NCBI GenBank assembly: GCA_016234855.1
Contig: JACRNO010000060.1
Coordinates: forward strand, 9,595-73,594
Source of the DNA: Deltaproteobacteria bacterium
Lineage (GTDB): Bacteria > Desulfobacterota > GWC2-55-46
DNA: 64,000 nucleotides
Reading direction: 5' to 3'
The position numbers and the translations under genes are program-made. Each line of letters opens with the position of its first letter. The first letter of the stretch is position 1. Below, piece after piece: positions 1,252 to 30,982 of this stretch. Below the pieces are notes generated by a model, which saw nothing but the letters and a program-made list of their open reading frames with translations, was not told the DNA's origin and ran no database searches.

Positions 1252-1317
1252 GGATGCGCATCCCCGCGCTCCCTTGCTTAAGGCGGGTTGCCTTAATGCA
1301 AAAAGGCTTCCGGGATG

Positions 1318-2345: not shown

Positions 2346-2579
2346 CAGGTTGCTGAAAAACTCGAATCTGGACAGGCTGCTCAAATCTTCCCATTGCAAT
2401 AATAAAGACGCAATGGGAACCCAGCCAGATGCTAGGCGTCGAGGAGCGACGAATGAGGCAAATCCCCCTCAGTCCCCCTTTTTCAAAGGGGGAAGTTACG
2501 CCGCAGTGAGGAGTCGGGGCACCCGCGCCAAGCGGCGCGGGTCGGACAACGACGCAGATGGGCGTTTTTCAGCAGCCTG
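2346..2579. repeat. 234-bp structured intergenic element flanked by 16-bp inverted repeats (candidate sRNA or second MITE family)
   Basis: GCAGGTTGCTGAAAAAC at 2346-2362 and GTTTTTCAGCAGCCTG at 2564-2579. Three internal GC-rich hairpins (CCCATTGC...GCAATGGG, CCCCCTTTTTCAAAGGGGG, CCCGCGCCAAGCGGCGCGGG). Immediately 3' of rodA. Confidence 0.45.
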
Positions 2580-3737: not shown

Positions 3738-5632
3738 TCCGATATTGGTTGTTTTTCGTCACCTGCCGGCCCCGGGGTTGCCTCCTGCGGCACAGGGCCC
3801 TGCGGCGCGGCAGGAGGCTCGCCAAGATACGCCTTGATCACGGCGCGCGCCACGGGCGCGGCCGCCGAGGCCCCGAAGCCGCCGTGTTCGACGATAACGG
3901 CAACGGCGATCCTGGGGTCGTCATAAGGCGCAAAACCCGCAAACCACGCATGATCGCGGAACTTGTACTGTATCGACTTGACATCCTTCGTCCTCTCTAT
4001 CAATTTGGTGACCTGAGCGGTGCCGGTCTTGCCGGCAATCTTCAACCCGCTGGCCGCGAGAAAATGCGCGGTGCCGCCATCTTCATGCACGACCCCGAAC
4101 AGGGCTTCCCGCACATAGGCCAGATTTTCGAACGATATCGGCAAAGCGCCGGCCGCCACCGGGGTAAAGACCTGCGCCGGGCCGCCGTCCTGACGGGTTA
4201 TCTCCTCAACAAGCTGCGGTTGGTAGAGCGTGCCTCCGTTGGCTATGGCGGCGTATGCCGAGGCAAGCTGCAACGGGGTGACGAGCATATAACCCTGTCC
4301 CACCGAGACGGATATCGTCTCGCCCTCGTACCACCGCTTGCCGTAGGTCTTCTGCTTCCATTCGGGAGAAGGCACCAGCCCGCTCTTCTCGTTGGCAAGC
4401 CCGATTCCGGTGCGCGTCCCGAACCCGAACCCCTTGGCATACATGGCCAGCCTGTCTACGCCGAGCTTGAGACCCACCTGATAAAAGAATGTATCGGATG
4501 ATTCCACTATGGCCCTATGCACCCCTATTATACCGTGGCCTTCGGGCTTCCAGTCCCTGTAGCTGCGATTTGCGTACCTGAACGCAGGGCCTGAATATAT
4601 CCGCGTCTGCGGGGTTACCTCGCCTTCCTCAAGGGCCGCGGCGGCATGCAGCGGCTTGAAGGTGGACGCAGGCGGATAGAGGCCCTGTATCGCCCTGTTG
4701 TTCATGATATTGAGCGGGTTTCCGATAAGCGCGGCCCAGTCTTCGGTTGAGATACCCGTGGAGAGCTGATTCGGGTCAAAACCCGGGGTGCTTACCATGG
4801 CCAGCACCCTGCCGCTGGACGGCTCTATGGCCACTACCGCGCCGACGCTGCCGCGAAGCGCTTCCCACGCGGCCATCTGCGTCTCAAGGTCTATGGTGAG
4901 CCTGACGTCGCCGCCCGGACGGGGCGCCAGCCAATTGACGAGTTTTATCTTCCTGCCGAGCGCGTCGACTTCTATTTCCTTGCCGCCGTCGATACCGCGT
5001 ATCGCGGTCTCAAGCGATTTTTCCAACCCGTACTTGCCTATATAGTCGCCGAGGTTGTAACGATCTTCCGGCTTCGACTCAGACAGTTCCTTGTCGTTTA
5101 TCTCGCCGAGATAGCCTACGAGATGAGCGAACGCCTCCCCGTAGATATACAGTCTCTTCGGCGAGACCTCCAGTATGACGCCGGGCATCTCGAACTTGTA
5201 GGTCTCCACCTTGACCGTCTCCTCCCAGGTCAGCTCCTCTTTTAGCTTTATCGCCTGGAAGGGCGGACGACCCTTCGCCTTCTTTATCTTCTCGTCGATA
5301 TCAACCGGCTCGATATTGACGAGACGCTTGAGCATCTGTCTGGTCTGATCCCAGTCCTTTACGTCCTCAGGCACGAGATACAACTCGTAGCCTGGACGGT
5401 TGTCCGCGATCTTGAACCCGCCGCTGCTGTATATAACGCCGCGCGGAGCGGTAGACCTCAGAAGGCGGATGGAGTTATTCTGCGCAAGCTCGGCATACCT
5501 GTCGTAGTCCTTTACCTGCAGGAGCCACAGGCGCACGGCCAATATAAAAAAGGCCGCGCCCACTATTATCATGGCGGCGAAGACCCTTCTTTTGAGATCG
5601 ACCGGCTCCTTGTCCCCGAAGTATCCGCTCAA
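3734..5632 (-). CDS. mrdA: Penicillin-binding protein 2 (transpeptidase)
   Basis: 632 aa with N-terminal TM anchor, STFK (PASTFKP), SSD (SxN-like) and KTGTA motifs of class B PBPs. Overlaps mreD by 4 nt. Confidence 0.85.
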   Translation of the reverse strand: MSGYFGDKEPVDLKRRVFAAMIIVGAAFFILAVRLWLLQVKDYDRYAELAQNNSIRLLRSTAPRGVIYSSGGFKIADNRPGYELYLVPEDVKDWDQTRQMLKRLVNIEPVDIDEKIKKAKGRPPFQAIKLKEELTWEETVKVETYKFEMPGVILEVSPKRLYIYGEAFAHLVGYLGEINDKELSESKPEDRYNLGDYIGKYGLEKSLETAIRGIDGGKEIEVDALGRKIKLVNWLAPRPGGDVRLTIDLETQMAAWEALRGSVGAVVAIEPSSGRVLAMVSTPGFDPNQLSTGISTEDWAALIGNPLNIMNNRAIQGLYPPASTFKPLHAAAALEEGEVTPQTRIYSGPAFRYANRSYRDWKPEGHGIIGVHRAIVESSDTFFYQVGLKLGVDRLAMYAKGFGFGTRTGIGLANEKSGLVPSPEWKQKTYGKRWYEGETISVSVGQGYMLVTPLQLASAYAAIANGGTLYQPQLVEEITRQDGGPAQVFTPVAAGALPISFENLAYVREALFGVVHEDGGTAHFLAASGLKIAGKTGTAQVTKLIERTKDVKSIQYKFRDHAWFAGFAPYDDPRIAVAVIVEHGGFGASAAAPVARAVIKAYLGEPPAAPQGPVPQEATPGPAGDEKQPISD

Positions 5633-12819: not shown

Positions 12820-13254
12820 TCAACACGCGGCCCCTCCTGACCATGAACAGGTGCCGTCAGTCAACATCGTAACCGTTCCGTGCGCCCCGGTTGAATTCGG
12901 GTTGGTGACGGAGACAATATAGGAGTCGGCTATCCCGCCGGCCCCTGCGGTAATTGTGAGGACATTGTCTTTACTAACGACAAAGTAGGCTGTGCCAATT
13001 GTAACAGACGAAGGGCCGGTGAGCGCAGGCAGGGCGAGATAAGTCTTCGCATCAACGAAATAGGCCTCTTCCTGTATAAGGGCGTTCCTTGCGTCGTTTA
13101 CCATGCTTGCATTTATGGCGCGTTCCTTGAACGCCGAGTACTGAGGGATGGCTATGCTTGCAAGAAGCGCAATAATCGCAACGACCATCAGAAGCTCGAT
13201 AAGCGTGAAACCGGCGTCCCTTGACTGCGAATGAGATGAGATTGACAACATCAT
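12820..13254 (-). CDS. Type IVa pilin-like protein (second, divergent pilin paralogue)
   Basis: Class III signal motif G/FTLIELLMVVAIIALLASIAIPQY with Glu5, plus a C-terminal Cys pair (DGTCSWSGGAAC). The track start is the TTG at 13305. The ATG at 13254 (MMLSISSHSQSRDAG|FTLIE, GGAG 6 nt upstream) is more plausible. The leader is atypical, with few basic residues. Confidence 0.75.
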   Translation of the reverse strand: MMLSISSHSQSRDAGFTLIELLMVVAIIALLASIAIPQYSAFKERAINASMVNDARNALIQEEAYFVDAKTYLALPALTGPSSVTIGTAYFVVSKDNVLTITAGAGGIADSYIVSVTNPNSTGAHGTVTMLTDGTCSWSGGAAC

Positions 13255-13303
13255 CCTCGGCTCCATAGAGGCAAAATGAAATATGACAAGACCCACATGT
13301 ACC

Positions 13304-13572
13304 AAGGAACTTCTGATTAATTATATTCTGCTGTCATTCTGAAGGAGTCCAGCACCACCTTGCGTCGCCAAGTTTAGTTTTGGCACGAACTTTTGTGATG
13401 GAAAGTGGTGCTGGACGACTGAAGAATCTCGTAACTATTTGATTTGCCAATAGACAAGATTCTTCCCCATTCGCTACGCTCAGGGCTAAAGGCGCAAAAA
13501 GCATAACGTTAGCGCACAAGGCTCACGCGCTCAGAATGACAGGCTCAGTAGAATAAATCAGAGGGTCCTTAA
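13304..13572. mobile_element. MITE-like element copy 3, abutting second pilin gene
   Basis: TIRs AAGGAACTTCTGATTAATTAT (13304-13324) and GAATAAATCAGAGGGTCCTTAA (13551-13572). Internal GTCATTCTGAAGGAG...CTCAGAATGACA palindrome and GCGCTAACGTTATGC module. Confidence 0.6.
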
Positions 13573-13893: not shown

Positions 13894-14364
13894 TTAGCAA
13901 ACGGCGGCGTTGGCATACGTGCAAACTCCGAGTTGGTTGTACGTAAGATCGCCGTAGGCGCCGGCAGTAGACGAACCTGAATTGGCGTTAGCAACAGTTA
14001 TGGTGAAGGTACCGGTGCCAAAAACACCTGCGGTTGTTGCTATGGTAACAGTATTGCCGAGGCTGACCTTGACAGAGTAGGTATTCAGCCTGGTCGCGCC
14101 GTTCCAAGTCATAATGGCAGGGCCAACGCCGCTTATGCCGTTCGCATCCATATAAGAGTTTTCGTCTGACATGGTTGCCTCGAGATTGGTCGCGGTATTC
14201 CTTGCGTCCGCTACCATCGACGCCCTTACGCCCCTCTCTCTGTAGGCCGAGAACTGCGGGATGGCGATTGCCGCGAGGATGGCGATAATCGCGACGACGA
14301 TGAGCAACTCGATGAGCGTAAAGCCTTCTTCATTCTTCTGTCTCTTAAGCATTTCCTTTAACAT
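13894..14364 (-). CDS. pilA: Type IVa major pilin PilA (Geobacter-type N-terminus, full length)
   Basis: 156 aa. MLKEMLKRQKNEEG|FTLIELLIVVAIIAILAAIAIPQFSAYRE closely resembles Geobacter/Desulfuromonadales PilA. C-terminal disulfide loop CTYANAAVC. Perfect AGGAGG SD 6 nt before the ATG. Sigma-54 promoter and intrinsic terminator flank the gene. Confidence 0.9.
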   Translation of the reverse strand: MLKEMLKRQKNEEGFTLIELLIVVAIIAILAAIAIPQFSAYRERGVRASMVADARNTATNLEATMSDENSYMDANGISGVGPAIMTWNGATRLNTYSVKVSLGNTVTIATTAGVFGTGTFTITVANANSGSSTAGAYGDLTYNQLGVCTYANAAVC

Positions 14365-14438: not shown

Positions 14439-14455
14439 TGCAATGCCCGTGCCAA
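14439..14455 (-). promoter_or_regulatory. Sigma-54 (RpoN) -24/-12 promoter of pilA
   Basis: Minus-strand reading gives TGGCAC-GGGCA-TTGCA, an exact match to the TGGCAC-N5-TTGCW consensus. It sits about 75 nt upstream of the pilA ATG. Confidence 0.8.
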
Positions 14456-14748: not shown

Positions 14749-16158
14749 CTACTCCTCCCCCACCCCATATTTGCTCAGCTTATAGCGCATGGCGCGAAAC
14801 GACATGCCAAGAAGCTCGGCAGCCTTCTTCTTTGCCCCGCCAGTAACCTTCAATGCGTCCATAATGGCCGTCCGCTCGAACTCTTCAACGGTCTTTTCAA
14901 GGTCAAACCCTGCCCCCTCTTTCAAGCGCGCAGGCGTAAGCCCCACGCGCTCGGCTGTATCCCCCTGCCCGGCCGCCTTCGGGGCCTGGCGCGCATGCAG
15001 GGGCAGGCTCTCCACGGTAATCAGATCGGAAGGCTCAAGGGCAACGGCGCGCTCCATTATGTTTTCAAGCTCGCGCACGTTGCCCGGATAATCGTATTCC
15101 ATGAGCGCGGCCATCGCCGGCGCGGAGATTACGGTTATGGTCTTGCCCATATCCTTATTATACTTCTCAAGAAAGTGCCTCGCTAAAAGCGGGATATCTT
15201 CTTTACGCTCGCGTAAGGCCGGCATATCGATACGTATCACGTTCAACCTGTAGAAGAGGTCTTCCCTGAACCTGCCCGCCTTGACCTCGGCCTCGAGGTT
15301 CCTATTTGAGGCGGCAATGAGCCTTATATCGACCGGTACATCGACAGTGCCGCCGACCCTGCGAAACCGCCTCTCCTGTATAAAACGCAGGAGCTTGACC
15401 TGAAGGTGCAGAGGCATCTCGGTCAACTCGTCGAGGAAGAGCGTGCCGCCGTCCGCCTCCTCGGCCAGCCCCTGCTTATTGGCCACCGCCCCTGTGAACG
15501 CGCCTTTCTGATGACCGAAGAGCTCGCTCTCAAGGAGGTTCTCGGGTATGGCCCCGCAGTTGACCGCGACGAACGGCGCGTCTTTCCTGTCGCTCTCGTG
15601 CCATATCGCCCGCGCCGCGATCTCCTTGCCCGTGCCGGATTCCCCGGTGATAAAGACGTTGGTCTTGCCCTTTGCTATGCTTACGATAAGCTGATATACC
15701 TCAGTCATCCTCGGGCTTGCCCCCACCATGTTTGCAAACCCGAACCTGGCCTTGCAATCGTCCTTAAGCAGCTTGTTCTCGAGTTCAAGCCGCCTGAGCT
15801 TCAGGGCCTTACGGATATTGAGCTTTATCTCGTCCACGTTGAACGGCTTGGTGAAATAATCAAACGCGCCGGCCTTCATGGCCTCAACCGCGGTATCGAC
15901 CGAGGCATATGCGGTAATCATTATGACGATGGTCTCGGGGGCCAGTTCCTTGACGGCCTTGAGAAACTCCAGGCCCGTCATGCCGGGCATCTTTAGGTCC
16001 GTCAGCACGAGGTCGCATCTGTTCTCCCTGCAGAACTCAAGCGCGGCAGCGGGAGCCGGGAAACTGCGCGCCTCGTAGCCTTCCTTGCGGAGCATTATCT
16101 CCAGAAAATCCCGCATGTCTTTCTCGTCGTCTACTATTATAATCCTCGGCGCGCTCAT
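14749..16158 (-). CDS. pilR: Sigma-54-dependent response regulator PilR (NtrC family)
   Basis: 469 aa with a REC domain (IIIVDDEKDMRD...D...K), an AAA+ sigma-54 activator domain (GESGTGKE, ESELFGH) and a C-terminal HTH. Sits between pilS and pilA as in Geobacter and Pseudomonas. Confidence 0.9.
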   Translation of the reverse strand: MSAPRIIIVDDEKDMRDFLEIMLRKEGYEARSFPAPAAALEFCRENRCDLVLTDLKMPGMTGLEFLKAVKELAPETIVIMITAYASVDTAVEAMKAGAFDYFTKPFNVDEIKLNIRKALKLRRLELENKLLKDDCKARFGFANMVGASPRMTEVYQLIVSIAKGKTNVFITGESGTGKEIAARAIWHESDRKDAPFVAVNCGAIPENLLESELFGHQKGAFTGAVANKQGLAEEADGGTLFLDELTEMPLHLQVKLLRFIQERRFRRVGGTVDVPVDIRLIAASNRNLEAEVKAGRFREDLFYRLNVIRIDMPALRERKEDIPLLARHFLEKYNKDMGKTITVISAPAMAALMEYDYPGNVRELENIMERAVALEPSDLITVESLPLHARQAPKAAGQGDTAERVGLTPARLKEGAGFDLEKTVEEFERTAIMDALKVTGGAKKKAAELLGMSFRAMRYKLSKYGVGEE

Positions 16159-16214: not shown

Positions 16215-17930
16215 CTACGCCCCGACGGCGTCCTTCTTTCTGTTCGCATTCTCCGTCATCAATCCATGCAACGGCAGAAGTATCTTGAAGACCGTGCCGG
16301 AGCCGAGGCTGCTTCTGGCGTCGATTGTGCCCTCATGGCTCTCTATAATCCTGTGTATGATGGCAAGGCCGAGGCCAGTGCCGGTATCCTTGGTCGAAAA
16401 GAACGGGTCGAATATCCTCTTGAGGTCGTCCTGCTTGATGCCGCAGCCGGTATCCGTCACCAGCACCTCCGCATACGAGCGATGCGCGCCCCCGGACAGA
16501 CGGCTGTCCGCGGAATTGTCGTTATGCAATATCCTTGAAGTCAAGGTCAAGGTGCCGCCGTTCGGCATGGCATGGGCCGCGTTTACGAAAAGGTTCCAGA
16601 AGACCTGCCCTAACTGCCGCTCCAGGCCGTTGACGTACAACCCCTCGCCGAGGTTGCTTTTGATATTGATGCCGGCAGCCTCAGGGCTGTTTTCAAAGAC
16701 CTTTACCGTGCCCCTTATGACCGCGGCGAGATCGACCCTGTCTCTCTTGCCGGTGGCAGGTTTAGCGAAGAGCAGGTAGTCGGTTATGAGCTTATTGAGC
16801 CGTTCGGTCTCGCGCACCACTATCTCCATCAGATGGGCGTTATCTCCGCTCAGACGGAGTTCGTCACTGAGCACCTGTATGGAGCCGCTTATGGAGGCCA
16901 GCGGGTTTCTTATCTCATGCGCTATGCCTACGGAGAGTTCGCCAAGGGCCTTGAGCTTCTCGCTCACGCGAAGCCTTTCCTCCATCGCCTTTATCTGCGT
17001 CATATCCTCGAAGATGATAATGTAAGCGGCCTCCCCGCCCTCGCCCCTGGAGATGGTATACCCGATACATACCTCTACGCCGTCCTTTTTTCTGAAGTTC
17101 TTTTCCGCGCGAAGGCTCTCTCTGGGCGAATCGCCCGGGGCGCCCTGCATCATATCCGGGAATATCTCACGCGCGTCCTTGTAGTATACGTCGCGCAGGT
17201 TATACCCCGTAACATGGGTCGCCTCCTTGTTAAACGAGGTTATCCGCAATAGTTCGTCAACGGTCATTATGCCGCTCGTAATGTTCTCGACTATCAGACG
17301 ATTGAGACTCTCGAGTCTGTCGAAGTCTATCTCCTTCGCTTCAAGCCTCTTTTCGACCTTGGCCATTGACTCGGCAAGATAGCCTGCCAGATACGCAATA
17401 ATGAAATAAGCAAGGATATTCGTCGTTATGGTCGTAAATACGTCCGCCCACAAAGGCGCGGCCACGTGGACGCCGAAGACCTTGAATTTTGCGGGAAGCA
17501 CCCTATAGTAGTCAAGGTCTATCAATACGCCATAACAGATGGCGGAGAGGGCTGCCGCGTAAAGACCTCCGCGCTTATTAATGATAATGGCGCCGCCTAT
17601 GACGACCAACGGATAAAGGACGTGAAGATAGCTCTCCACCCCGCCGGTGATATATACGATAAGCGTTATCAGAAGGATATCCGCCGTGACCTGCATGTAG
17701 ACGAAGAGCTTGAGGTTGGCTATCCGCTTGAATACGATGGCATAGAAGATTGAGAAGAGACCGACAAGGACAACTATTGCATAGAGGGGCGTAAAATTGA
17801 TATCTGCGGTGGAGGAGGCCTTTATCTGAAACCACGAGGTTATGCTCAGGAACGCAAGCCCGAGGACAACCCTAAGCACCATCATGGCCAGGAGTTTAGC
17901 CCGGAACGCGCTTATGGGGCTTTCCTGCAT
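16215..17930 (-). CDS. pilS: Sensor histidine kinase PilS
   Basis: 571 aa with a multi-TM N-terminal domain, PAS-like region, HisKA (GIAHEIRNPLASI) and HATPase_c. Immediately upstream of pilR. Confidence 0.85.
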   Translation of the reverse strand: MQESPISAFRAKLLAMMVLRVVLGLAFLSITSWFQIKASSTADINFTPLYAIVVLVGLFSIFYAIVFKRIANLKLFVYMQVTADILLITLIVYITGGVESYLHVLYPLVVIGGAIIINKRGGLYAAALSAICYGVLIDLDYYRVLPAKFKVFGVHVAAPLWADVFTTITTNILAYFIIAYLAGYLAESMAKVEKRLEAKEIDFDRLESLNRLIVENITSGIMTVDELLRITSFNKEATHVTGYNLRDVYYKDAREIFPDMMQGAPGDSPRESLRAEKNFRKKDGVEVCIGYTISRGEGGEAAYIIIFEDMTQIKAMEERLRVSEKLKALGELSVGIAHEIRNPLASISGSIQVLSDELRLSGDNAHLMEIVVRETERLNKLITDYLLFAKPATGKRDRVDLAAVIRGTVKVFENSPEAAGINIKSNLGEGLYVNGLERQLGQVFWNLFVNAAHAMPNGGTLTLTSRILHNDNSADSRLSGGAHRSYAEVLVTDTGCGIKQDDLKRIFDPFFSTKDTGTGLGLAIIHRIIESHEGTIDARSSLGSGTVFKILLPLHGLMTENANRKKDAVGA

Positions 17931-17947: not shown

Positions 17948-19168
17948 CTATCCGGCCGCGCCGGCAAGAGCGAATATCGGCAGGTAAAGCGCTATAACCA
18001 ATCCGCCGACGGTGACGCCGAGGAATGCCATCAACATCGGCTCGATAAGGGAGGTCAGCGCCTCGACCGCCGAGTCAACCTCTTCTTCATAGAAGTCGGC
18101 AATCTTGTTGAGCATGGCGTCGAGCGCGCCGGTGGACTCACCGACGCCTATCATCTGCACGACCATGCCAGGGAAGACCTTGGACTCCGCAAGAGGCTCC
18201 GCAAGCGTCTTGCCCTGCGACAGACTTACACGCGCCTGCATGATGGCTTCTTTAATAATGGTATTGCCTGCGGTGTTGGCGACGATTTCAAGGGCCTCGA
18301 GGATGGGCACGCCGCTGGATAGCATGGTGCCGAGCGTCCTTGTAAAGCGGGCGGTGGAAGACTTTCTTACAAGATCGCCCATGACCGGGAGCTTCAGCAA
18401 TATGCTGTCAATAATCTTCTTGCCCTTAGGGGTTCCGTTGGCATGCTTGATGCCGAAAAAGACAGCCACGAGAAACCCGACAATTATATACCACTGGTGC
18501 TTGAGGAAGTTACTCATGTTAACGACCATCTGCGTGGGCAAAGGCAGCGCCTTGCCAAAACCTGCAAACATGCCCTCGAATATCGGCACGACGAAGATAA
18601 GGAGACCGGAGACGATAAGCGTGGCTATGACTATTACCGCCGTAGGATAGGTCATCGCGCTCTTGACCTTACTCTTTAGCTTCTCGGCCTTCTCAAGGAA
18701 GCCGGAGAGCCTTGCAAGGATGGTATCGAGGATACCGCCGACCTCGCCGGCGGCGACAAGGTTTACATAAAGGTTATCGAAGACCTTTGGGTGCTTTCTG
18801 AGAGAATCGGCAAAGGTTGCGCCGCCTTCAACCGAGTTCTTTACCTCGCCGATGACCCTTTTGAACTCCTTGTTTTCATTCTGGCTGCCCAGCAGGTCGA
18901 GACACTGGACAAGCGGCAGACCGGCGTCAATCATGGTGGCGAACTGACGGCTGAAAATAACGAGCTCTTTGGTGGGCACACCCCCGCCGGGCTTGAAACT
19001 CTTAAGCTTATCCATGAGGCCGCCGCCCACGCCCTTCTCAGTAACCGAGGTCGCGTTGATCTGCATCCTCTTGATGGTGGCGTTGGCTTGAGCAAGGGTT
19101 GCGGCCTCGACCTCGCCGCTGCGTGACTCTCCGGCGATATTCTTACCAGTGTATACGAATGTCGGCAT
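17948..19168 (-). CDS. pilC: Type IV pilus inner-membrane platform protein PilC (GspF family)
   Basis: Two GspF-like repeats with three TM segments. MPTFVYTGKN... is the conserved PilC start (ATG at 19166-19168). The track ORF is extended to 19228. Confidence 0.9.
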   Translation of the reverse strand: MPTFVYTGKNIAGESRSGEVEAATLAQANATIKRMQINATSVTEKGVGGGLMDKLKSFKPGGGVPTKELVIFSRQFATMIDAGLPLVQCLDLLGSQNENKEFKRVIGEVKNSVEGGATFADSLRKHPKVFDNLYVNLVAAGEVGGILDTILARLSGFLEKAEKLKSKVKSAMTYPTAVIVIATLIVSGLLIFVVPIFEGMFAGFGKALPLPTQMVVNMSNFLKHQWYIIVGFLVAVFFGIKHANGTPKGKKIIDSILLKLPVMGDLVRKSSTARFTRTLGTMLSSGVPILEALEIVANTAGNTIIKEAIMQARVSLSQGKTLAEPLAESKVFPGMVVQMIGVGESTGALDAMLNKIADFYEEEVDSAVEALTSLIEPMLMAFLGVTVGGLVIALYLPIFALAGAAG

Positions 19169-19393
19169 AGTTTTATCTTCTCGTTGGCCGCCCTCGATAT
19201 TCATAAAAACGAATATAAAGAGAAGCAATTATTGAAACTGTCGCCATTGTCATGAGCCGGACTCACGACGTCAAAAAAAATCTCAGTACCTGGGCGCGCC
19301 GTATAAAATCGTCTCTCACAACGGCATGCGATTGTAATTATATCACACTTTTGTCATTCATCAAACCCGGAGACTGAAAGCGGCATGCCGGCC

Positions 19394-20524
19394 CTACCTC
19401 ATTGGCGCGCCAGGCTTCACTATTCCGGCATTGGCAAGCATCTGTTTCAACTCATCCGGCTCGGAACTGCGCCCCATCGCCTCGTCCATGTTGATAAGCC
19501 GCCTGCCGACAAGATTGACGAGGCACTGGTTCATCGTCTGCATGCCGAACTTGGACTGACCGACCTGCATCTGGGAGTAGACCTGATGGACCTTATCCTC
19601 GCGGATGAGGTTCCTTATGGCGGCGTTAGGCACCATTATCTCCAACGCGACGCACCTGCCCTTGCCGTCGGCCCTCGGTATCAGGAGCTGCGAAAGCACG
19701 CCCTCGAGCACGAACGACAACTGCGCGCGAATCTGCGGCTGCTGGCCCGAAGGAAATACGTCGACGACCCTGTTTATCGTCTGAACGCATGAGTTCGTAT
19801 GCAGGGTGGCGAAGCACAGATGGCCCGTCTCGGCGACGGTCAGCGCGGTCTCTATGGTCTCGATATCGCGCAGCTCGCCGAGCAGGACGACGTCCGGGTC
19901 CTGACGCAATATATACTTGAGGGCCTTTTTAAAGGCATGTGTGTCATATCCCACCTCGCGTTGATTGACGAGCGCCTTCTTTGACGGATGGAGATATTCT
20001 ATCGGGTCTTCGACCGTAATGATATGCTCGTGCCTCTCCGAATTAATCTTGTCTATCATGGCGGCAAGCGTTGTCGTCTTGCCGCTGCCGGTGGGGCCGG
20101 TAACAAGGATTAGACCGCGCGGTTTTTTACAAAGTTCTTCGAGTATCGGCGGCAGGCCGAGTTCCGTAAAGGACTTTATCTGGAATGGAATAGTCCTGAA
20201 AACGCCTGCAACGGTGCCCCGTTGCACGAAAAGATTGCCCCTGAAACGGCTGAGGCCTTTGAGGCCGAAAGAGAAGTCAAGCTCATTTTCTTCTTCAAAT
20301 TTGTGTTTCTGCGTGTCCTGGAGAATCGTGTAGCATATCTGCTTCGTCTCAACGCCGCTTAGCACCGCCGCGCCGGGCACGGGCTGAAGCGAGCCGTGCA
20401 CGCGCATCCTCGGCGGGGAGTTTGCGGATAAGTGCAGGTCGGAGCCCCCCTTTTCTATCATAATTTTCAAGAGGTCCTGGAGATTGTACTTTGCTCCCCC
20501 GCCGCCTTCGACCGCCATTATCAA
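19394..20524 (-). CDS. pilT: Twitching motility ATPase PilT
   Basis: 376 aa. Walker A GPTGSGKTTT, Asp box and His box (ATLHTN) of PilT-class secretion ATPases, with no N-terminal GSPII extension. AAGGAG SD. Confidence 0.9.
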   Translation of the reverse strand: MIMAVEGGGGAKYNLQDLLKIMIEKGGSDLHLSANSPPRMRVHGSLQPVPGAAVLSGVETKQICYTILQDTQKHKFEEENELDFSFGLKGLSRFRGNLFVQRGTVAGVFRTIPFQIKSFTELGLPPILEELCKKPRGLILVTGPTGSGKTTTLAAMIDKINSERHEHIITVEDPIEYLHPSKKALVNQREVGYDTHAFKKALKYILRQDPDVVLLGELRDIETIETALTVAETGHLCFATLHTNSCVQTINRVVDVFPSGQQPQIRAQLSFVLEGVLSQLLIPRADGKGRCVALEIMVPNAAIRNLIREDKVHQVYSQMQVGQSKFGMQTMNQCLVNLVGRRLINMDEAMGRSSEPDELKQMLANAGIVKPGAPMR

Positions 20525-20654: not shown

Positions 20655-22358
20655 CTAATCGGCCATCGTCACCCTCATGATCTCTTCGATGGTGGAGACA
20701 CCCTCAAGCACCTTGGTGATACCGCTCATACGAAGCGTCTTCATCCCGTCTTTGATGGCAATCCTTTTAATCTCCGAGGTAGGGGCGCCGTTCAACACCG
20801 CCTCCTTCAGGGCATCCGTAAAAGGCATGACCTCGTAAAGCGCTATCCTGCCCTTGTACCCGCTTCCGTTGCACGTCGCGCACCCCGCGCCCTTGTAGAC
20901 CTCAACCCCGGCGTCTATAATGTCCTGCGCGACGCCGAAGGTCTTTAACAAGGCCTCGGACGGCTGTGGGGCCTTGACCTTGCAGTCCTTGCATACCTTA
21001 CGGGCGAGCCTCTGGGCCAGGATGAGGTTACATGCGGACGAGACGAGGAACGGTTCTATACCCATGTTAAGCAGCCTGTTAACGGTGCCCGGGGCGTCGT
21101 TCGTATGGAGAGTGGAAAGCACCAAATGACCCGTAAGCGCGGCCTTGACCGCGATCTCGGCCGTCTCATAGTCGCGTATCTCTCCGACCATGATAACGTC
21201 CGGGTCCTGACGCAGGAAGCTCCTCAGCGCCGCCGCGAAGTTCAGGCCGATATCGTCGTGCATCTGACACTGGTTTATGCCGCCGAGATTGAACTCGACT
21301 GGGTCTTCCGCGGTCGAGATATTCTCGCTCACCTTGTTAAGGTCTGAGAGGGCTGAATAAAGCGTCGTCGTCTTGCCGGAGCCGGTCGGGCCGGTGACGA
21401 GGCAGATGCCCCACGGCTTGTGGATGGCGTGCATGAAGTCGTCAAGGGCCTTCTGCTCGAAACCGAGCTTGGTCATGTCGAGCTGCAGGTTGCCCTTGTC
21501 GAGGAGACGCAAGACCGTCTTCTCGCCGAAGAGCGTCGGCAGCACGGAGACGCGGTAGTCCATCTCCTTGTTCTTGGCGAGCTTGAGCTTGATCCTGCCG
21601 TCCTGCGGCAGCCTGCGCTCGGCGATATCGAGATTGGCGATGATCTTTATCCTGGACGTGATGGCGTTTCTGAGCTTCATGGGAGGCTTCATCACCTCCT
21701 GAAGCACGCCGTCAATCCTGTAACGCACGCGGAAGGACTTTTCATAGGGCTCGATATGGATATCGGAGGCGTTCTTCTTGATGGCGTCGGTGAGTATCAT
21801 GTTGACGAGCTTGACGACAGGGGCGTCTTCAACGGCCTTCTTGAGGTCGTTGACGTCGACGTCGTCTTCCTCCCTGACGACCTCCATGTCGGTGTCTTCA
21901 AAATCGCCGAGCATGCCTTCGAGGTTGGCCTCCGGCGATTCATACTGCTTTTCAATGGCGGCCTTTATGGCGGCCTCGGAGGCGATAAGCGGCTCGACGT
22001 TGTAACCGGTAAGGAATTTTATGTCGTCGATTGCGAAGATGTTGGACGGGTCGGCCATGGCCATGACCAACGTGGAGCCGGTCCTGTTAACCGGTATTAT
22101 CTGGTACTTCTGACAGACGTCCTCAGGTATGAGCTTTACGATTTCAGGGTCGATTTCAGCGGCGGCAAGGTCGATGGTGGGTATCCCGTACTGCCTGCTC
22201 AAAAAGGCGGTCAGGTCTTTTTCGGTAATGAATCCGAGCTTGGTGAGATTAAGACCAAGCCGGCCACCGCTCATCTTCTGCTCATCAATAGCCTTTTTCA
22301 ACTGCTCGGCCGTAATAAGCCTCTCTCTAAGTAGTAGTTCGCCGATTCTATCCGCCAT
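20655..22358 (-). CDS. pilB: Type IV pilus assembly ATPase PilB
   Basis: 567 aa. GSPII N-domain, Walker A GPTGSGKTTT, tetracysteine motif (CKDC...CATCNGSG). Confidence 0.9.
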   Translation of the reverse strand: MADRIGELLLRERLITAEQLKKAIDEQKMSGGRLGLNLTKLGFITEKDLTAFLSRQYGIPTIDLAAAEIDPEIVKLIPEDVCQKYQIIPVNRTGSTLVMAMADPSNIFAIDDIKFLTGYNVEPLIASEAAIKAAIEKQYESPEANLEGMLGDFEDTDMEVVREEDDVDVNDLKKAVEDAPVVKLVNMILTDAIKKNASDIHIEPYEKSFRVRYRIDGVLQEVMKPPMKLRNAITSRIKIIANLDIAERRLPQDGRIKLKLAKNKEMDYRVSVLPTLFGEKTVLRLLDKGNLQLDMTKLGFEQKALDDFMHAIHKPWGICLVTGPTGSGKTTTLYSALSDLNKVSENISTAEDPVEFNLGGINQCQMHDDIGLNFAAALRSFLRQDPDVIMVGEIRDYETAEIAVKAALTGHLVLSTLHTNDAPGTVNRLLNMGIEPFLVSSACNLILAQRLARKVCKDCKVKAPQPSEALLKTFGVAQDIIDAGVEVYKGAGCATCNGSGYKGRIALYEVMPFTDALKEAVLNGAPTSEIKRIAIKDGMKTLRMSGITKVLEGVSTIEEIMRVTMAD

Positions 22359-22445
22359 TGCGAGCGCCTGAGAAGAAAATTTTATTTAGCAACAAGTAAC
22401 TATCATATAAAAAACAGCAAACTGTGTCAAGGTCTTTGCTGTGAT

Positions 22446-22659: not shown

Positions 22660-23082
22660 TTACGCGTACTTGCGCGCGGTATGGATGACCTCCTCGGCGA
22701 AGAAAGGTTTCCTGATATAAACGTCTATCATCCCCTCCTTTACCCCCTCGAATATGTACCTTTCCGCATCCCTGAAGTAGCCGGTAAAGAGGACGACATG
22801 CACGTCGCCGGCGGCCTGTTTTATCTTCCTGTAGGTCTCCAGCCCGTTCATCCCGGGCATGACCATGTCCATGAACACCAGGGAGTAACCGCCATGCTTC
22901 ATTTTCTCAAGCGCGGCGGCCCCGCTTGTGACGTAGGCGGCGGCAAAACCCGCGTCCTTTAACATCTCGGACATGCCTATCCCGACCGACTCCTCGTCAT
23001 CGACTATCAGAATCTTTTTCACCCTCTCTTTCTCGCTCAATGCAATATACCTCCTTTCGATAATTACCCGCATGCTCCTCAC
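22660..23082 (-). CDS. Single-domain response regulator (CheY-like receiver)
   Basis: ILIVDDEES...FMDMVMPGMNG...K receiver motifs with no output domain. Start could be at 23043. Confidence 0.75.
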   Translation of the reverse strand: MRSMRVIIERRYIALSEKERVKKILIVDDEESVGIGMSEMLKDAGFAAAYVTSGAAALEKMKHGGYSLVFMDMVMPGMNGLETYRKIKQAAGDVHVVLFTGYFRDAERYIFEGVKEGMIDVYIRKPFFAEEVIHTARKYA

Positions 23083-23255: not shown

Positions 23256-25217
23256 CTAAGGCACGGCCGTTGAATCGTCATGTACCGGCAGAAATATCCT
23301 GAAGACAGCCCCGGAACCCGGGGCGTTCGCGCCTTCTATGCGGCCGTTGTGCTCGTTCATTATAGATTGCGAAATGGAAAGACCGAGCCCGATATTGAGC
23401 CCGCCGCCCTTCTCCTTGGTGCTGAAGAACGGGTCGAACATCTTGTTTAACGCATCAGGCGATATGCCGGGACCGGTATCGCGTATCTCCGCCACCGCAT
23501 AGCGCGCGCCTGCCTCCTCTTTTTCGTATGTCGAGATGAATATCCTGCCCTTGCCGTGCATCGCGTCGCGCGCGTTCTTGATGATATTCAGCATCACCTC
23601 CATTATCTGCCCCTTGTTGGCGTATACCGGGGACAAATCCGCTTTGATATCCTTCACGATATCGATAGCGGAGGTCTTTATCTCCGAGATAAAGAGACAC
23701 AGCGTAGCGGTTATGACCTCGTTCAGCAATACCGGCGCAAAACCGGAACGGGCCGGTCTTGCATAAGCAAGCATGTCTTGGATGATATACTTGGAGCGCA
23801 CCGCCGCGTCCTTGACCTTTTCAAGGAAGTAGTACTTCGGGTCGTTCTTATCCGTCCTGGCCATCAGCACCTCGGTGATGCTGAGGATTCCGGCAATAGG
23901 GCTATTGAGCTCGTGCGCGATGCCTGCGCCCATCTCTCCAAGCGAGGTCATCTTGGCGGTCTGTATCAGCTTCGATTCGGAGTCCTTCAACCGGCCGTAT
24001 GCCGTCTCAAGTTCCTTGAGCGTGCTGCTGAGCGCATCGGTGCGCTCGGCCACGGTCTCCTCCAGTTCGCGTATGTTCCTGTTAAGGGTCTGTATGAATC
24101 CCTTCCTCTCCGTGGTGTCGCGCCATATCTCTATCATGTACTTCCTGCGCCCCAGTTCCAGCACCGAGGCCGCTATCTCCACTGAAGTAAGCATCCCGTT
24201 CTTTCCAAAGAGTTCCGCGTCGCGCAGATACCCCTTGCCGTCAAAGACCCATCTGTCAAACGCGGAGCCGTACTCGGCCTGACTGGCGTCGGGATAAAGC
24301 TCCTCGGAAGATATGACAAGGAGTTCCTCGCGTGAATACCCTGTAATCGCCACGGCCGCCGGATTCACGTCCACGAACCTCCTGGTCTCTATATCGATAA
24401 GGACTATCGCGTCAACGGCCATCTGCACGAGCTTGGTGTACTTCTCGTTAAGCTCGTTCAACCGGGTGGTGGCCTGCAGAAGGGACTCGGTCATACCGTC
24501 AAAGGCCGCGCCGAGATCCTCCAGTTCGTCGCCCGTCTTCAGGTTCAGACGGTATGACAGGTCGCCGGAGGCAAGCGCATCGACCCCGCCCTTGATGTAA
24601 TTGAGCGGCTTGAGCAGACAGTAGTTCACGGTGGCAAGAACGGCGACGAACGTGGCAACGAGTATGGCGCCGCCCCATATAAGAAAACTCCTGGTGTGAG
24701 CGCTGATTATATTCTCGTGGTCCTCGAAGTTCAGCCGCATCGATATGACGCCGGCGACGGCCCCCTCGGCGCCCGTGTGGCAGCGTATGCACGCGCGCTC
24801 AAGAAAGACCGGCGAGACGCGGCGCACGGAACTTACGCCGTCTCGTATCTTTTCAAAGACGTCGGATGAGACCCCGCCCAGCGCATCCCTGTCAAGCTCG
24901 TCGCGCGCCATTTCGTCCAACTCAGGCCCGTATTGCATGTCCAGCGCCGGACCGTGCAAGACCCTTATCTCGGCCACGCCGTTCATGGCGTTGAAGCGCT
25001 CGACTATAGCCCTGTTCTCTTCTCTGCCGCCGCCAAGCCGCATGGAGGTGTATAACTGGTCGAAAAGGGCGTTGCTTAGGCGCTCCGCCTCGTTTATCCC
25101 TATATGGCGCATGAGCCTGGTGTCGGAACCGACGTCAAAATATACGAGCATCAATATGCCGGCGAGCAATATTGCGCCGATTATCAGGTTGAATCTCTGC
25201 GAAAGCCTGAGTCTCAT
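23256..25217 (-). CDS. Sensor histidine kinase with periplasmic CxxCH heme-binding motif domain, HAMP, PAS, HisKA, HATPase
   Basis: 653 aa. Two TM helices bracket a ~150-aa periplasmic region containing CIRCH (CxxCH c-type heme attachment motif). HAMP follows TM2, then PAS, HisKA (HELNSPIAGI) and HATPase_c. Confidence 0.8.
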   Translation of the reverse strand: MRLRLSQRFNLIIGAILLAGILMLVYFDVGSDTRLMRHIGINEAERLSNALFDQLYTSMRLGGGREENRAIVERFNAMNGVAEIRVLHGPALDMQYGPELDEMARDELDRDALGGVSSDVFEKIRDGVSSVRRVSPVFLERACIRCHTGAEGAVAGVISMRLNFEDHENIISAHTRSFLIWGGAILVATFVAVLATVNYCLLKPLNYIKGGVDALASGDLSYRLNLKTGDELEDLGAAFDGMTESLLQATTRLNELNEKYTKLVQMAVDAIVLIDIETRRFVDVNPAAVAITGYSREELLVISSEELYPDASQAEYGSAFDRWVFDGKGYLRDAELFGKNGMLTSVEIAASVLELGRRKYMIEIWRDTTERKGFIQTLNRNIRELEETVAERTDALSSTLKELETAYGRLKDSESKLIQTAKMTSLGEMGAGIAHELNSPIAGILSITEVLMARTDKNDPKYYFLEKVKDAAVRSKYIIQDMLAYARPARSGFAPVLLNEVITATLCLFISEIKTSAIDIVKDIKADLSPVYANKGQIMEVMLNIIKNARDAMHGKGRIFISTYEKEEAGARYAVAEIRDTGPGISPDALNKMFDPFFSTKEKGGGLNIGLGLSISQSIMNEHNGRIEGANAPGSGAVFRIFLPVHDDSTAVP

Positions 25218-25398
25218 GGGGTTGGGTAATTGTGTTGATTAGAGTCGGAGGTGTTCAATCTCTTCGCCGGAAACTAAAAATATCATGGGTCGGGGATGGT
25301 TATGCTCATGAAGCGGTTATATTGAGATTTTATCGCGGTATACGGGTTTGTCAACAGACACAGGGACGCTGCCGGCGCCACTGCACGGTTTGCGCCCT

Positions 25399-25971
25399 TT
25401 AAACAGACCGGCCGGCCCCTCTGAAAAAGGCCACAAAGTAATCGATGCCCGACCATACCGTAAGTATCAGGGCGGCGGCAAATAACACGAGGCCTATGGA
25501 CTGAAAGTCCACCCCGAAGAAGGGGTAATGCAACAGGAGAGACACGATGGCGACTATCTGCATGAAGGTCTTCCACTTGCCGAGCCTTGAGGCCGCTATG
25601 ACCACCCCCATGTCCACGGCTATGGCGCGAAGCCCCGTGACCGCCATCTCCCGGCTTATGAGGATGGCGACGGCCCACGCGGGAATCCTGCCTGACGGGA
25701 TGAGCATTATGAGAACGGTGGTGATGATTATCTTGTCGGCAAGCGGGTCAAGGAACTTGCCCAGCGTGGTCACCGACGACCAGCGCCGCGCCAGATAGCC
25801 GTCGAGCCAGTCGGTCGCGCATACGAGCGCGAATATAGCGGCGGCCGCCACGCTTAACAACCTGTCCGGAGAAAGGAGCAATAAGACGAGCACGGGGGCG
25901 CATACAATCCTGATGACGGACAGGCTATTGGGAATATTCAGATAACGCACCTGAGTTTCAGACCGCATCAC
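25399..25971 (-). CDS. pgsA: CDP-diacylglycerol--glycerol-3-phosphate 3-phosphatidyltransferase
   Basis: CDP-alcohol phosphatidyltransferase motif DGYLARRW...G...DPLADKIII. 190-aa membrane protein. Confidence 0.8.
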   Translation of the reverse strand: MMRSETQVRYLNIPNSLSVIRIVCAPVLVLLLLSPDRLLSVAAAAIFALVCATDWLDGYLARRWSSVTTLGKFLDPLADKIIITTVLIMLIPSGRIPAWAVAILISREMAVTGLRAIAVDMGVVIAASRLGKWKTFMQIVAIVSLLLHYPFFGVDFQSIGLVLFAAALILTVWSGIDYFVAFFRGAGRSV

Positions 25972-25990
25972 GCTACCGATTTTGAGAAGA

Positions 25991-26653
25991 TTATTCCGCA
26001 GAGGCTTTATACTGCTTATGATACCGCGAGACGCGCTTCACATAATTGCGCGTCTCGGCGTACGGCGGCACCGAACCGTATCTGAGAACGGCGTTTTCTC
26101 CGGCGTTATAGGCGGCGACCGCCAGTTTGACGTCATAGGAGAATAGTTTGAGAAGATATTTGAGATAACGTATCCCTCCGTCTATATTCTCTTCGGGGTT
26201 GAAGACGTCGCTTACGCGATAGAGTTTAGCGGTATCCGGCATCAACTGCATAAGCCCCTTTGCGCCGGCGGTCGAGACGGCGTTGGCGTCAAAATCAGAC
26301 TCGGCCTTTACTATGGCCTTGGCAAGCAAAGGGTCGACGCCGTGCTTCAACGCGCTCCTGTTGATAATCTCGTCGTAGTTACCGCGTGAATACGTCTTGT
26401 CGGGGTGATAGACCGTCCCCTTCTCGCGCATCATCCAACGGTAATTCGCCGAGACCGGCACGTTGGTGAAATGTATCACCCCGGCCCGGTCGGTAAAACT
26501 GTAAAAATCGGCCCTAACGGCCGCGGCGGAGAAAAGGACCGCAATGGACGCCGCTATGAATATCCCCGATAACTTCATCTCTAACCACCCACAATAATAA
26601 AACCGGTCACGGCCGGAAGGACGCGCCAACGCCTTATATCCGTTCATACGCAT
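25991..26653 (-). CDS. Lytic transglycosylase domain protein (SLT family)
   Basis: Signal peptide plus SLT motifs ESDFDANAVSTAGAKGLMQLMP and AYNAGENAV. Confidence 0.75.
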   Translation of the reverse strand: MRMNGYKALARPSGRDRFYYCGWLEMKLSGIFIAASIAVLFSAAAVRADFYSFTDRAGVIHFTNVPVSANYRWMMREKGTVYHPDKTYSRGNYDEIINRSALKHGVDPLLAKAIVKAESDFDANAVSTAGAKGLMQLMPDTAKLYRVSDVFNPEENIDGGIRYLKYLLKLFSYDVKLAVAAYNAGENAVLRYGSVPPYAETRNYVKRVSRYHKQYKASAE

Positions 26654-28515: not shown

Positions 28516-28545
28516 ACCCGCCGCCTGCTGCGCGCTTTCTCTGTG

Positions 28546-28692
28546 CCGTCAGGAGTTTCCTCCTGACGGCGGTACCCGGCGGATGGCAGGAGGAAACTCC
28601 CGCCATCACACTAATTTTCAGTCCCGTCAGGAGTTTCCTCCTGACGGCGGTGCCCGGCATATGGCAGGAGGAAACTCCCGCCATCACATTAA
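28546..28692. repeat. Two 69-bp direct repeats (78-bp period), each a double hairpin of the GTCAGGAG family (H2)
   Basis: CCGTCAGGAGTTTCCTCCTGACGGCGGT(A/G)CCCGGC(GG/AT)ATGGCAGGAGGAAACTCCCGCCATCACA(C/T)TAA at 28546-28614 and 28624-28692. About 94% identical. Confidence 0.7.
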
Positions 28693-28930: not shown

Positions 28931-30982
28931 TTGAAGATAAAGCATAAATTCCTCGCCGTATTTATCGTACTCATCCTCCTGTCGCTCATAGCAACGAGCT
29001 ACGTCAACTTCTCCATCACAGAAGACGCGGTAGTGCAAAACGCGCTCAGGTCGATGAGCAACGACATCACGCTCATCTCGGCCGACGTGGATGCATTCCA
29101 TGAAAAGGCCAAGAGCGAACTCGTATTCGGGATAGAATACCCCGTGTTCAAGGAATACTTTTCGCTGAGCGAGACGAGGGCCGGGAAGAAATACGACAAG
29201 AACAACGTCCTTCAATTCAGCCCCGCCCAAAAGAGGCTTAAAGACAAACTCGACGCATGGACGCTTTTCATACAGAGCAAATTCCCCATCGCCGAGACAT
29301 GCCTCATCGACGCCCACGGCCAGGAACACACAAGGATAACCTACGGCAAGACCGCCGAGGCCGACGACTACTCGCACGACGAGAGCGCGGCGCCTTTCTT
29401 TGCCCCAACGCTCAAGCTCGCCAAAGGTGAGGTCTACGTCCAATCGCCGTATATGTCCGCGGACGCAAAGAGATGGGTCTTCGCCTATACGTCTCCGATT
29501 GTCCTTGACGACGGCACCAAACCGGCCTTCTACCACTTCGAGATACCGCTTGAATACTTTCAAAAACTCCTCGAAGGCAAGCACTCGGGCAGAACCCTTG
29601 TCATAGACCAATCCGGCCTCATAATCGCGGACAGCAGAAATAAGATAGATACCGTTCTTAAGCAGACCGGCAATCCCAAGGGCGGCGAAGAGAGGCTCAA
29701 GGACTATCTACCCGCCGTCGGCGGCATATCCGGTGACGCAAAATTCGCGAATCTTATAGACAAAATGCTGGCGGGTTCCGAAGGGACCGGCGTCTTTGCC
29801 GGCGACAACGAGGATATGTATCTCGCCTATAAAAAATTGTCGACCTTCGGCTGGAGGGTCGTGCAGATAAAATCCTACTCCGAGCTTCTCGAAGGCTCGT
29901 CATCGCTCGGGGCCATTAAACAGACGATTGCCGTCAGCGCGGTCATCGCCGTGATTGCGGCCATAATCATCACGTTCATCGTCTCGAACAGGATAACCAA
30001 GCCTCTCCTTGCGCTAACGAACGCCGCCCGGCACGTGGCCGAGGGAGACCTGAGCGTCAATCTGCCCACGATAACATCGAGGGACGAAGTCGCAAGCCTC
30101 CAATACGCCATGCAGAACATGATGGACAACCTCAAAAAGATGATTTCCGAGATCGAGGGCATCTCCAACCTTGTAGACGAGGCAAGCGTTGAAATAAAGG
30201 CCAACACCGTGAACATGGCCAACGGGATGGAGGACCAGGCCAACAAGTCAACGCAGATAGCCACCGCCTCGGAAGAGATGTCCGTCACCATCAACGAGAT
30301 AGCGCGCAACACGACGTCCATAACCGAGACCGCCGTAACGGCGACAGCGCTCGCCCACAACGGCGAAGGTATCGTCGCAAAATCCGTTGAAGAGGTCAAA
30401 ACGATTGCCGTGATGGTCGAAGACCTCGCTCAAAACATCAAGACGCTCGGCGGCCGCTCGGAGGAGATAGGCAACATCATCGACGTGATAAACGAAATAG
30501 CCGAGCAGACGAACCTGCTCGCCCTGAACGCGGCAATAGAGGCCGCGCGGGCCGGAGAACAGGGCCGCGGGTTCGCCGTAGTCGCCGACGAGGTAAGAAG
30601 GCTCTCGGAGAGGACGGCCAAGTCAACGCTTCAGATAGACGGGATGGTAAAGGCCATTCAGAGCGAGGTCCAATCCGCCGTAAAGGCCATGTCCGAGGGG
30701 ACAAAAAAAGCCGGGGCCGGGGTCAGGCTCTCATTCGAGGCCGGAAAGGCGCTGGGCGAGATAGTAGAGAGCGTGAAAGAGCTTCACGTAAAGGTCGAAC
30801 AGATCGCCACCGCTACGAACCAGCTCTCCAACGTCTCTGAGCAGATAAGCACGGACATAGGGATGGTTGCATCCGTATCAAAAGACACGAAAGACGGCAC
30901 GGAGATAGTAATCGGCTCGGCCTCGAAACTCACGGAACTTTCCAAGACCCTTCAAAGCGCCCTCTACCGTTTCAAGCTATAA
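28931..30982 (+). CDS. Methyl-accepting chemotaxis protein with periplasmic Cache-like sensor domain
   Basis: 683 aa. TM1, ~270-aa periplasmic domain, TM2, HAMP, and the conserved MA signalling domain ([35 protein letters not shown]). TTG start. Confidence 0.85.

Follow-up and report, generated by a model that had tools for sequence, protein, structure and literature searches.

Periplasmic sensors that carry heme c on a single-Cache fold were described in Geobacter between 2006 and 2008. Recently, the whole family to which they belong, including its kinase fusions, has been defined in a preprint as sCache_heme, which unites the DUF3365/Tll0287 proteins with GSU0582 and GSU0935 of Geobacter sulfurreducens (Deshpande et al. 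2026, PMC12889525). Members are defined by a Cache fold with an inserted short helix, bearing the heme-attachment motif CxxCH, between β3 and β4; the motif is conserved in at least 99% of them, and the family, in which fusions to HAMP-PAS-kinase outputs are common, shows enrichment in Desulfobacterota (PMC12889525). Here we present a computational analysis of a sensor histidine kinase encoded at 23256..25217 on the minus strand of a 64,000-nucleotide stretch of Deltaproteobacteria bacterium DNA (contig JACRNO010000060.1 of assembly GCA_016234855.1, positions 9,595 to 73,594), which is referred to in full as the window. On sequence and model evidence, the periplasmic sensor of this kinase almost certainly carries a covalently bound heme c. 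The sensor type is already known, and the only new element is its conserved position beside the type IV pilus motor genes in an uncultured deltaproteobacterial group.

To establish a context for the window kinase, the described systems of this type must be considered briefly. GSU0935 and GSU0582 (3B42 and 3B47; Pfam PF21563) resemble it in having a periplasmic domain of ~130-150 residues between two transmembrane (TM) segments, followed by HAMP, and in having a single CxxCH, carried by a short helix, whose proximal histidine is in register; Met60 of GSU0935 corresponds to Met59 of the kinase. They differ from it in output, which is a chemoreceptor domain in the Geobacter proteins and PAS-HisKA-HATPase here, and in sequence, the identity to the window sensor being only ~16-21%. 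Moreover, the window kinase lies in the neighbourhood of pilB, whereas no such setting has been described for GSU0935 or GSU0582. The heme ligands of GSU0935 are His144 and Met60, and in the Geobacter sensors reduction takes the hemes from high to low spin, probably because Met60 then binds (reviewed in PMC8396549). The sCache_heme family at large (PF11845) shares with the window kinase the single-Cache domain with its CxxCH helix and the extracytoplasmic location, and the HAMP-PAS-HisKA-HATPase fusion is common in it (PMC12889525). Tll0287 and a stand-alone protein of P. putida have Cys/His ligation, and the receptor of P. azotoformans has no protein sixth ligand, whereas a His/Met pair, with Met59 in the sixth position, is predicted for the window kinase.

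The kinase is a protein of 653 residues, and all features of its gene, of the adjoining regulator and of the pilus cluster, promoter-like sites included, lie on the minus strand. Hydropathy analysis gave two membrane segments, at about residues 9-29 (TM1, an uncleaved membrane anchor; 25131..25193) and 177-199 (TM2, also seen in the full-length model; 24621..24689). Both flanks obey the positive-inside rule, with MRLRLSQR ahead of TM1 and KPLNYIK behind TM2. The basic residues thus lie on the cytoplasmic side of each segment, and residues 30-176 (~147 residues; 24690..25130), the sCache_heme sensor domain, are therefore predicted to face the periplasm, an extracytoplasmic location, as the attachment of a c-type heme requires. 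Behind TM2, four domains were found, all of them scoring above the Pfam curated cut-offs: HAMP (PF00672, E 2.2e-11; residues 201-247, 24477..24617), a cytoplasmic PAS (PAS_9, PAS_8 and PAS; residues 258-372, 24102..24446), the HisKA dimerisation and phosphoacceptor domain (PF00512, 41.1 bits against a cut-off of 26.9; residues 426-487, 23757..23942) and the HATPase_c catalytic domain (PF02518, 72.6 bits against a cut-off of 26.4, E 4.5e-20; residues 537-645, 23283..23609). Together with the H-box GIAHELNSP, which holds the phosphoacceptor His435 (23913-23915), these identify a classical two-component kinase. Upstream of the gene, at 25327..25354, is a sigma-70-like promoter match (TTGACA-16-TAAAAT, 11 of 12 positions), a consensus match only. 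The same protein is present at NCBI as an entry from a metagenome-assembled genome (P0002, 100% identical) under the label “PAS domain S-box protein [Deltaproteobacteria bacterium]”.

The sensor domain contains CIRCH at residues 143-147 (24777..24791), the single CxxCH of a protein with four cysteines. From alignments and the AlphaFold model, C143 and C146 are predicted to form the thioether attachment site for heme c and H147 to be the proximal ligand. Given the cysteine and histidine frequencies of 48 open reading frames (ORFs) of the window, CxxCH is expected 6.7e-4 times per 653 residues and 0.019 times over the 18,373 residues. The motif appeared in 22 of 100,000 shuffles of the kinase sequence and in none of the other 47 window ORFs; it is therefore not a chance motif. 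A full-length search with the kinase returned 186 relatives at E ≤ 1e-30, the best 120 of which align with the kinase over its full length, with identities of 45-86%, and originate from assemblies of uncultured “Deltaproteobacteria” or Thermodesulfobacteriota. When these 120 orthologues were aligned, C143 was found to be conserved in 119, and C146 and H147 in all 120. The two middle residues vary freely, the first being L, R, T, V, I or M and the second G, R, K, S, A or Q. The sole orthologue without the first motif cysteine, P0060, reads ERRECH in place of CxxCH, which could reflect single-thioether attachment or an error of sequencing or assembly. The original prediction, made from the letters of the window without database searches, had described a kinase with two TM segments, a periplasmic domain of ~150 residues, HAMP, PAS, HisKA and HATPase, and with a CxxCH peptide between TM1 and TM2; hydropathy and Pfam bear out this architecture, the peptide is where it was said to be, and the loss of the motif from orthologues, which the prediction had named as evidence that would count against it, was not seen in this alignment.

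Assignment of the sensor domain to a family was less direct. Only two Pfam families touch the domain, Tll0287-like (PF11845) and Mcp40H-20_sensor (PF21563, the GSU0582/GSU0935 type). As a single sequence, the window protein scores 16.6-17.5 bits against PF11845, below the cut-off of 24.1, and 14 bits against PF21563, below the curated cut-off of 27. Its match in the PDB, again as a single sequence, is to 3b42 and is weak (E 0.46). Because these single-sequence matches to Pfam (E 0.011) and the PDB are sub-threshold, profiles were needed for the family assignment. A profile of 55 orthologous sensor domains, searched against the PDB, matched GSU0935 (3b42_A) at E 2.7e-6 and GSU0582 (3b47_A) at E 1.4e-4. 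The matches to the Geobacter structures span profile positions 14-139 of 151 (~120 residues), with the CxxCH and the distal methionine in register. When the 55 domains were scanned individually, 34 matched PF21563 and 33 matched PF11845 at E ≤ 0.01. The top PDB hit of the profile, an engineered cytochrome c555 trimer, was dismissed as three repeats of a local CxxCH match, each at E 0.75.

The predicted structure points in the same direction. The AlphaFold model of residues 28-178 (pLDDT 87.6, predicted template modelling score 0.81) consists of a long N-terminal helix, a second helix, a beta sheet with helices and a C-terminal helix. In it, the CxxCH lies on a short helix (residues 141-145, model residues 114-118) between two beta strands, so that the model shows a single-Cache fold with the CxxCH helix inserted between strands, as in the β3/β4 definition of the family. 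A Foldseek search with the sensor model returned GSU0935 first (3b42_B, E 4.4e-5), together with GSU0582 (E 2.5e-3) and WalK single-Cache domains (TM-score 0.63), and overall the fold searches returned GSU0935, Tll0287 and single-Cache sensors. The root-mean-square deviation of the model from the Geobacter structures is poor, which fits the domain swapping of the latter, since the GSU0935 and GSU0582 sensor domains crystallised as domain-swapped dimers (PMC8396549). The membership of the window protein in sCache_heme thus rests on profile and predicted-fold evidence. The family named in the original prediction, DUF3365/Tll0287 with GSU0582 and GSU0935, was recovered by the hidden Markov model searches, the profile matches to the PDB and the fold searches alike; a match to a non-heme family, which had been named as a further point that would count against the prediction, was looked for among the Pfam families touching the domain, and both of those found are the ones named above.

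Two observations count against a heme-binding sensor: the single-sequence Pfam scores of the window protein, both below the curated cut-offs, and cytochrome c maturation genes, none of which are visible within the window. The first of these is a limit of sensitivity of single-sequence scans and is outweighed by the other family tests. It is also the starting point of the one reading in which no heme is bound, namely that the CxxCH binds a metal or forms a disulfide within a Cache domain of the ordinary ligand-binding sort. The sub-threshold score is the evidence in its favour, and it is confronted with homology over the full domain to two crystal structures with covalent heme c, in which the motif and the distal methionine are in register, with the invariance of the motif histidine, with the periplasmic location and with the near-universal presence of CxxCH across sCache_heme cited above. 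We regard this reading as very improbable.

The breadth of the family was estimated with HMMER: an exhaustive search against 1.84 billion cluster representatives gave 1,305 relatives of the sensor domain at E ≤ 1e-3, of which 335 reach E ≤ 1e-10. Of the best 150 representatives, 148 cover the motif and 146 of these have CxxCH. A Pfam scan of 87 of the best 150 gave chemoreceptor outputs in 36, GGDEF in 15 and kinase domains (HATPase_c in 15, HisKA in 12), mostly joined to the sensor through HAMP (68). The window kinase therefore represents one class of architecture in a known and fairly large sensor family. Within it, the orthologue group of the window differs from the wider family in a TSMRLGGGR signature around the methionine and in a histidine at residue 88, where the wider family mostly has arginine. 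The sensor domain alone, as a single sequence or as the 55-sequence profile, retrieved one fragment each from a large protein database, the word-index step of that search missing the 120 orthologues. A genome scan with kinase-core peptides from the full-length alignment retrieved mostly unrelated kinases, the only true orthologues being L001 and L002.

Both axial heme ligands are conserved in the kinase, and the ligation predicted from the alignments is H147 and Met59. In the HMMER alignment, H147 is paired with chain residue 110 of 3b42_A, His144 of GSU0935, giving a numbering offset of 34. Met59 (25041..25043) falls on chain residue 26, and with the offset fixed by His144 this residue is therefore Met60 of GSU0935. 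At the position of this predicted distal, or sixth, ligand, all 118 orthologues without a gap have methionine, as do 133 of 142 wider-family representatives (best 150). In the full-length AlphaFold model, one unbroken helix, residues 5-60, runs from TM1 into the first periplasmic helix and ends exactly at Met59, the C-terminal end of the extension of TM1, and a second unbroken helix, residues 165-216, connects the sensor with HAMP by way of TM2. The kinase is a clean and well-conserved example of its type, with both heme ligands assignable by alignment. Standard annotation misses the sensor domain because the window protein is below the PF11845 curated cut-off, and the NCBI label mentions only the PAS domain.

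The nature of the signal is where the Geobacter proteins and the remainder of the family invite different readings. By analogy with the Geobacter sensors, the oxidised heme of the kinase would be high spin, with its sixth site open or occupied by water; upon reduction, Met59 would bind the iron and the heme would become low spin; and nitric oxide (NO) or carbon monoxide (CO) would displace Met59. A redox signal would be read in this way. Alternatively, the same protein with the same heme would respond to NO (or CO) and not to redox state, the gas displacing Met59 or the proximal histidine, and surface behaviour would be tuned to denitrification intermediates or nitrosative stress. One sCache_heme protein, bound to the membrane and linked to HAMP, binds NO with a slow off-rate, comparable to those of H-NOX and NosP, without forming a stable O2 complex; its properties are those of an NO sensor and not of a redox carrier, and the members fused to signalling domains have been proposed to be NO sensors (PMC12889525). 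In GSU0582 and GSU0935, NO binds whether the heme is oxidised or reduced, CO only when it is reduced, and on the reduced heme both gases displace Met60 (PMC8396549). On these properties the physiological signal of the kinase may, by analogy, be NO rather than redox state, which weighs against a redox sensor. However, the characterised NO binder has no protein-derived sixth ligand, water being inferred in its place (PMC12889525), whereas Met59 is invariant here, as in the Geobacter sensors with a redox-linked spin switch, and the window gives no indication of NO metabolism. Furthermore, the redox and NO readings are not mutually exclusive. We consider an NO or CO signal in place of redox a real possibility, although on the unlikely side.

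Immediately downstream of the kinase gene is a gene for a stand-alone CheY-like receiver (22660..23040). Its longest ORF extends to 23082; translation probably begins at the TTG at 23040, because this codon lies 9 nt after an AGGAGG and the resulting 126 residues are in line with the 123-150 residues of the orthologues. Response_reg spans nearly the whole protein (E 1.9e-22, 80 bits against a cut-off of 30.2), and the NCBIfam matches are generic and below cut-offs. In ORF numbering, the catalytic residues are complete: Asp28/Asp29 of the acidic pocket, the phosphoacceptor Asp72, Thr100 and Lys125. Asp72 aligns with the phosphoacceptor of PilR, to whose receiver domain the protein is 35% identical. 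The earlier description of the kinase as paired with a CheY-like single-domain regulator at 22660-23082 therefore holds, Response_reg being the only Pfam domain and the gene adjoining that of the kinase. The regulator had also been said to be divergent from pilB, and this is wrong: the kinase, the regulator and the genes from pilB through the pilin gene all lie on the minus strand and are read in the same direction.

The order of genes on the minus strand is SLT, PgsA-like, kinase, regulator, pilB, pilT, pilC, pilS, pilR, pilin and a second pilin-like gene. By Pfam, pilB (20655..22358; MshEN and T2SSE) encodes the extension ATPase of the type IV pilus, pilT (19394..20524; T2SSE) the retraction ATPase and pilC (17948..19228; T2SSF) the platform protein. 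They are followed by pilS (16215..17930; 6TM_PilS, HisKA and HATPase_c), the kinase with the six-TM PilS domain, and pilR (14749..16158; Response_reg, Sigma54_activat and HTH_8), a sigma-54 activator. The type IVa pilin gene (13894..14364; N_methyl) encodes a precursor of 156 residues, and the second pilin-like gene, downstream of it (12820-13305), encodes 161 residues with an N-terminal methylation motif. A perfect sigma-54 -24/-12 consensus, TGGCACGGGCATTGCA, is located 75-90 nt upstream of the pilin gene (14439..14454). It is the sole sigma-54 consensus without mismatch in the window and fits control of pilin expression by PilS, PilR and RpoN. Upstream of pilB, at 22402..22430, is a sigma-70-like promoter match (TTGACA-17-TATGAT, 11 of 12 positions; consensus match only). 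A scan for terminator-like sites between the receiver gene and pilB found none.

The significance of this neighbourhood was assessed by comparing 13 loci, the window and 12 orthologous loci with kinase identities of 45-66%. In 12 of the 13, pilB is downstream of the kinase gene, either directly after the kinase or the kinase-regulator pair (11 loci) or after a three-gene insertion (L090). That insertion, at 7311-10370 of L090 between the receiver gene and pilB, is an opposite-strand block encoding an HD-domain protein, a receiver and a HAMP-PAS kinase. Ten loci have the small receiver; it is absent from L083, L084 and L091, three of the more divergent loci with a kinase identity of 45-47%, in which a gap of only ~300 nt separates the kinase gene from pilB. 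A link between the kinase and pilus control is plausible from this gene order, on which it rests.

Several observations weigh against that link, which is circumstantial. The loci represent one fairly narrow clade of uncultured, closely related lineages, whose PilB proteins are 75-90% and NadB proteins 63-82% identical, and the shared order of the kinase and pil genes may simply have been inherited within that clade. The SLT and PgsA-like genes are upstream in 11 of the 13 loci, nearly as conserved as pilB is downstream; L087 keeps SLT, PgsA, kinase and regulator with no pil genes downstream; and the small receiver, as noted, is missing from three loci. The promoter-like sites described above suggest that the kinase gene and pilB have separate promoters. 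In addition, the pilin gene has a PilR/sigma-54 promoter of its own, going by the consensus upstream of it. All of this except the loss of the receiver is what one would cite for a kinase-regulator pair that is unrelated to pili, holds its place by descent in one clade and controls, for example, envelope functions (SLT/PgsA) or distant targets. What distinguishes the two cases is the behaviour of L088 and L090. In these loci a wholly different set of genes lies upstream (DciA, GAF and HD-domain), and the kinase, regulator and pilB are still together, in L090 despite the insertion. The synteny consequently favours a link to the pil genes over a link to SLT-PgsA, and, with pilB downstream in all loci except one, we think it possible, though somewhat unlikely, that the pair has no role in pilus control. 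In the literature we found no paper tying a heme-c sensor kinase to type IV pili.

The presence of PilS and PilR in the same cluster raises the question of which regulator the kinase addresses. The heme kinase is not PilS: it has no match to 6TM_PilS, and the genuine PilS is encoded by the separate gene at 16215-17930. Both systems belong to the NtrB-like class of kinases, and the cytoplasmic PAS-HisKA-HATPase part of the heme kinase is 29% identical to PilS over ~400 residues (E 1e-34), indicating paralogy. The two systems differ in that PilS is a six-TM membrane sensor with a sigma-54 activator, PilR, as its partner, whereas the heme kinase has a periplasmic sensor between two TM segments and adjoins a receiver-only protein. 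From this paralogy, from the similarity of the receiver to that of PilR and from the three orthologous loci in which no small receiver separates the kinase gene from pilB, one could argue that the heme kinase feeds PilR and hence pilin transcription, the small receiver being only a phosphate sink or competitor. The helix that follows the phosphoacceptor histidine, which governs partner specificity, argues otherwise, since it is AHELNSPIAGILSITEVL in the heme kinase and AHEIRNPLASISGSIQVL in PilS, clearly different. It is also the same in loci with and without the small receiver, with no sign of convergence on PilR where the receiver is lacking. Cross-talk to PilR is neither supported nor excluded by these data, and as the main route of signalling we judge it improbable.

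Taking these considerations together, we favour, as rather probable, an inner-membrane kinase with a His/Met-ligated heme-c single-Cache (sCache_heme) input, the receiver as its partner and the pilus machinery as its most likely target. In the mechanism that we envisage, the making or breaking of the bond between Met59 and the iron would shift the helix of TM1 relative to TM2, and the shift would be passed through HAMP to the cytoplasmic PAS and would set the autophosphorylation of His435. Going by gene order, the phosphoryl group would then be transferred to Asp72 of the adjacent receiver. Having no DNA-binding domain, the receiver would have to contact other proteins or serve as a phosphate sink. 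Again from the order of the genes, the PilB/PilT/PilC machinery encoded directly downstream would be its most likely target, on a route parallel to the separate PilS/PilR/sigma-54 circuit that would drive the pilin gene. A more specific proposal is that, in this uncultured deltaproteobacterial clade, the heme kinase and receiver constitute a dedicated second input to the pilus, in which redox state (or NO) is read by the heme and the phosphorylated receiver acts directly on PilB/PilT, gating extension or retraction independently of PilS, PilR and sigma-54. This we offer tentatively and regard as doubtful.

A possible parallel for such a receiver is known. In the Chp system of Pseudomonas, PilG and PilH are CheY-like single-domain regulators that act on the pilus motors. 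Like the window receiver, they are receiver-only proteins encoded beside pilus motor genes, with any output through protein contacts. They are fed by a CheA-type chemosensory kinase, whereas the kinase adjacent to the window receiver is of the classical membrane type. To our knowledge, no physiological output is known for any member of the family of heme-c sensors to which the window kinase belongs, and the conserved position of the kinase gene beside the pil genes provides a testable hypothesis for such an output. If the link to the pili is real, anaerobic bacteria of sediment and groundwater would have a concrete route by which to couple periplasmic redox state or NO to attachment, motility or electron transfer based on pili.

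The remaining observations concern the surroundings of the locus. Directly upstream of the kinase gene, at 25399-26653 on the minus strand, are the genes for the SLT lytic transglycosylase, which has a DUF4124 N-terminus, and the PgsA-like CDP-alcohol phosphatidyltransferase. The transglycosylase might serve the assembly of the pilus through the cell wall. Beyond nadB, in L081, L083-L087 and L089 (~1300-4600 in locus coordinates), there is a conserved pair of genes encoding a TPR protein and a hybrid kinase of ~355 residues with receiver, HisKA and HATPase domains; in L087 the gene at the TPR position has no Pfam match. In the window, this position is occupied instead by a dCache chemoreceptor gene (28931-30982, plus strand). 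No Rfam family at the gathering threshold and no tRNA gene was found in the window. The gap between the nadB-like and chemoreceptor genes holds two tandem 78-nt units (28537-28692) that are 91% identical, each containing a palindrome of ~24 nt, GCCGTCAGGAGTTTCCTCCTGACGG; they look like an intergenic repeat of the repetitive extragenic palindromic (REP) or miniature inverted-repeat transposable element (MITE) kind. From 31 kb onward, nearly all genes of the window are on the minus strand.

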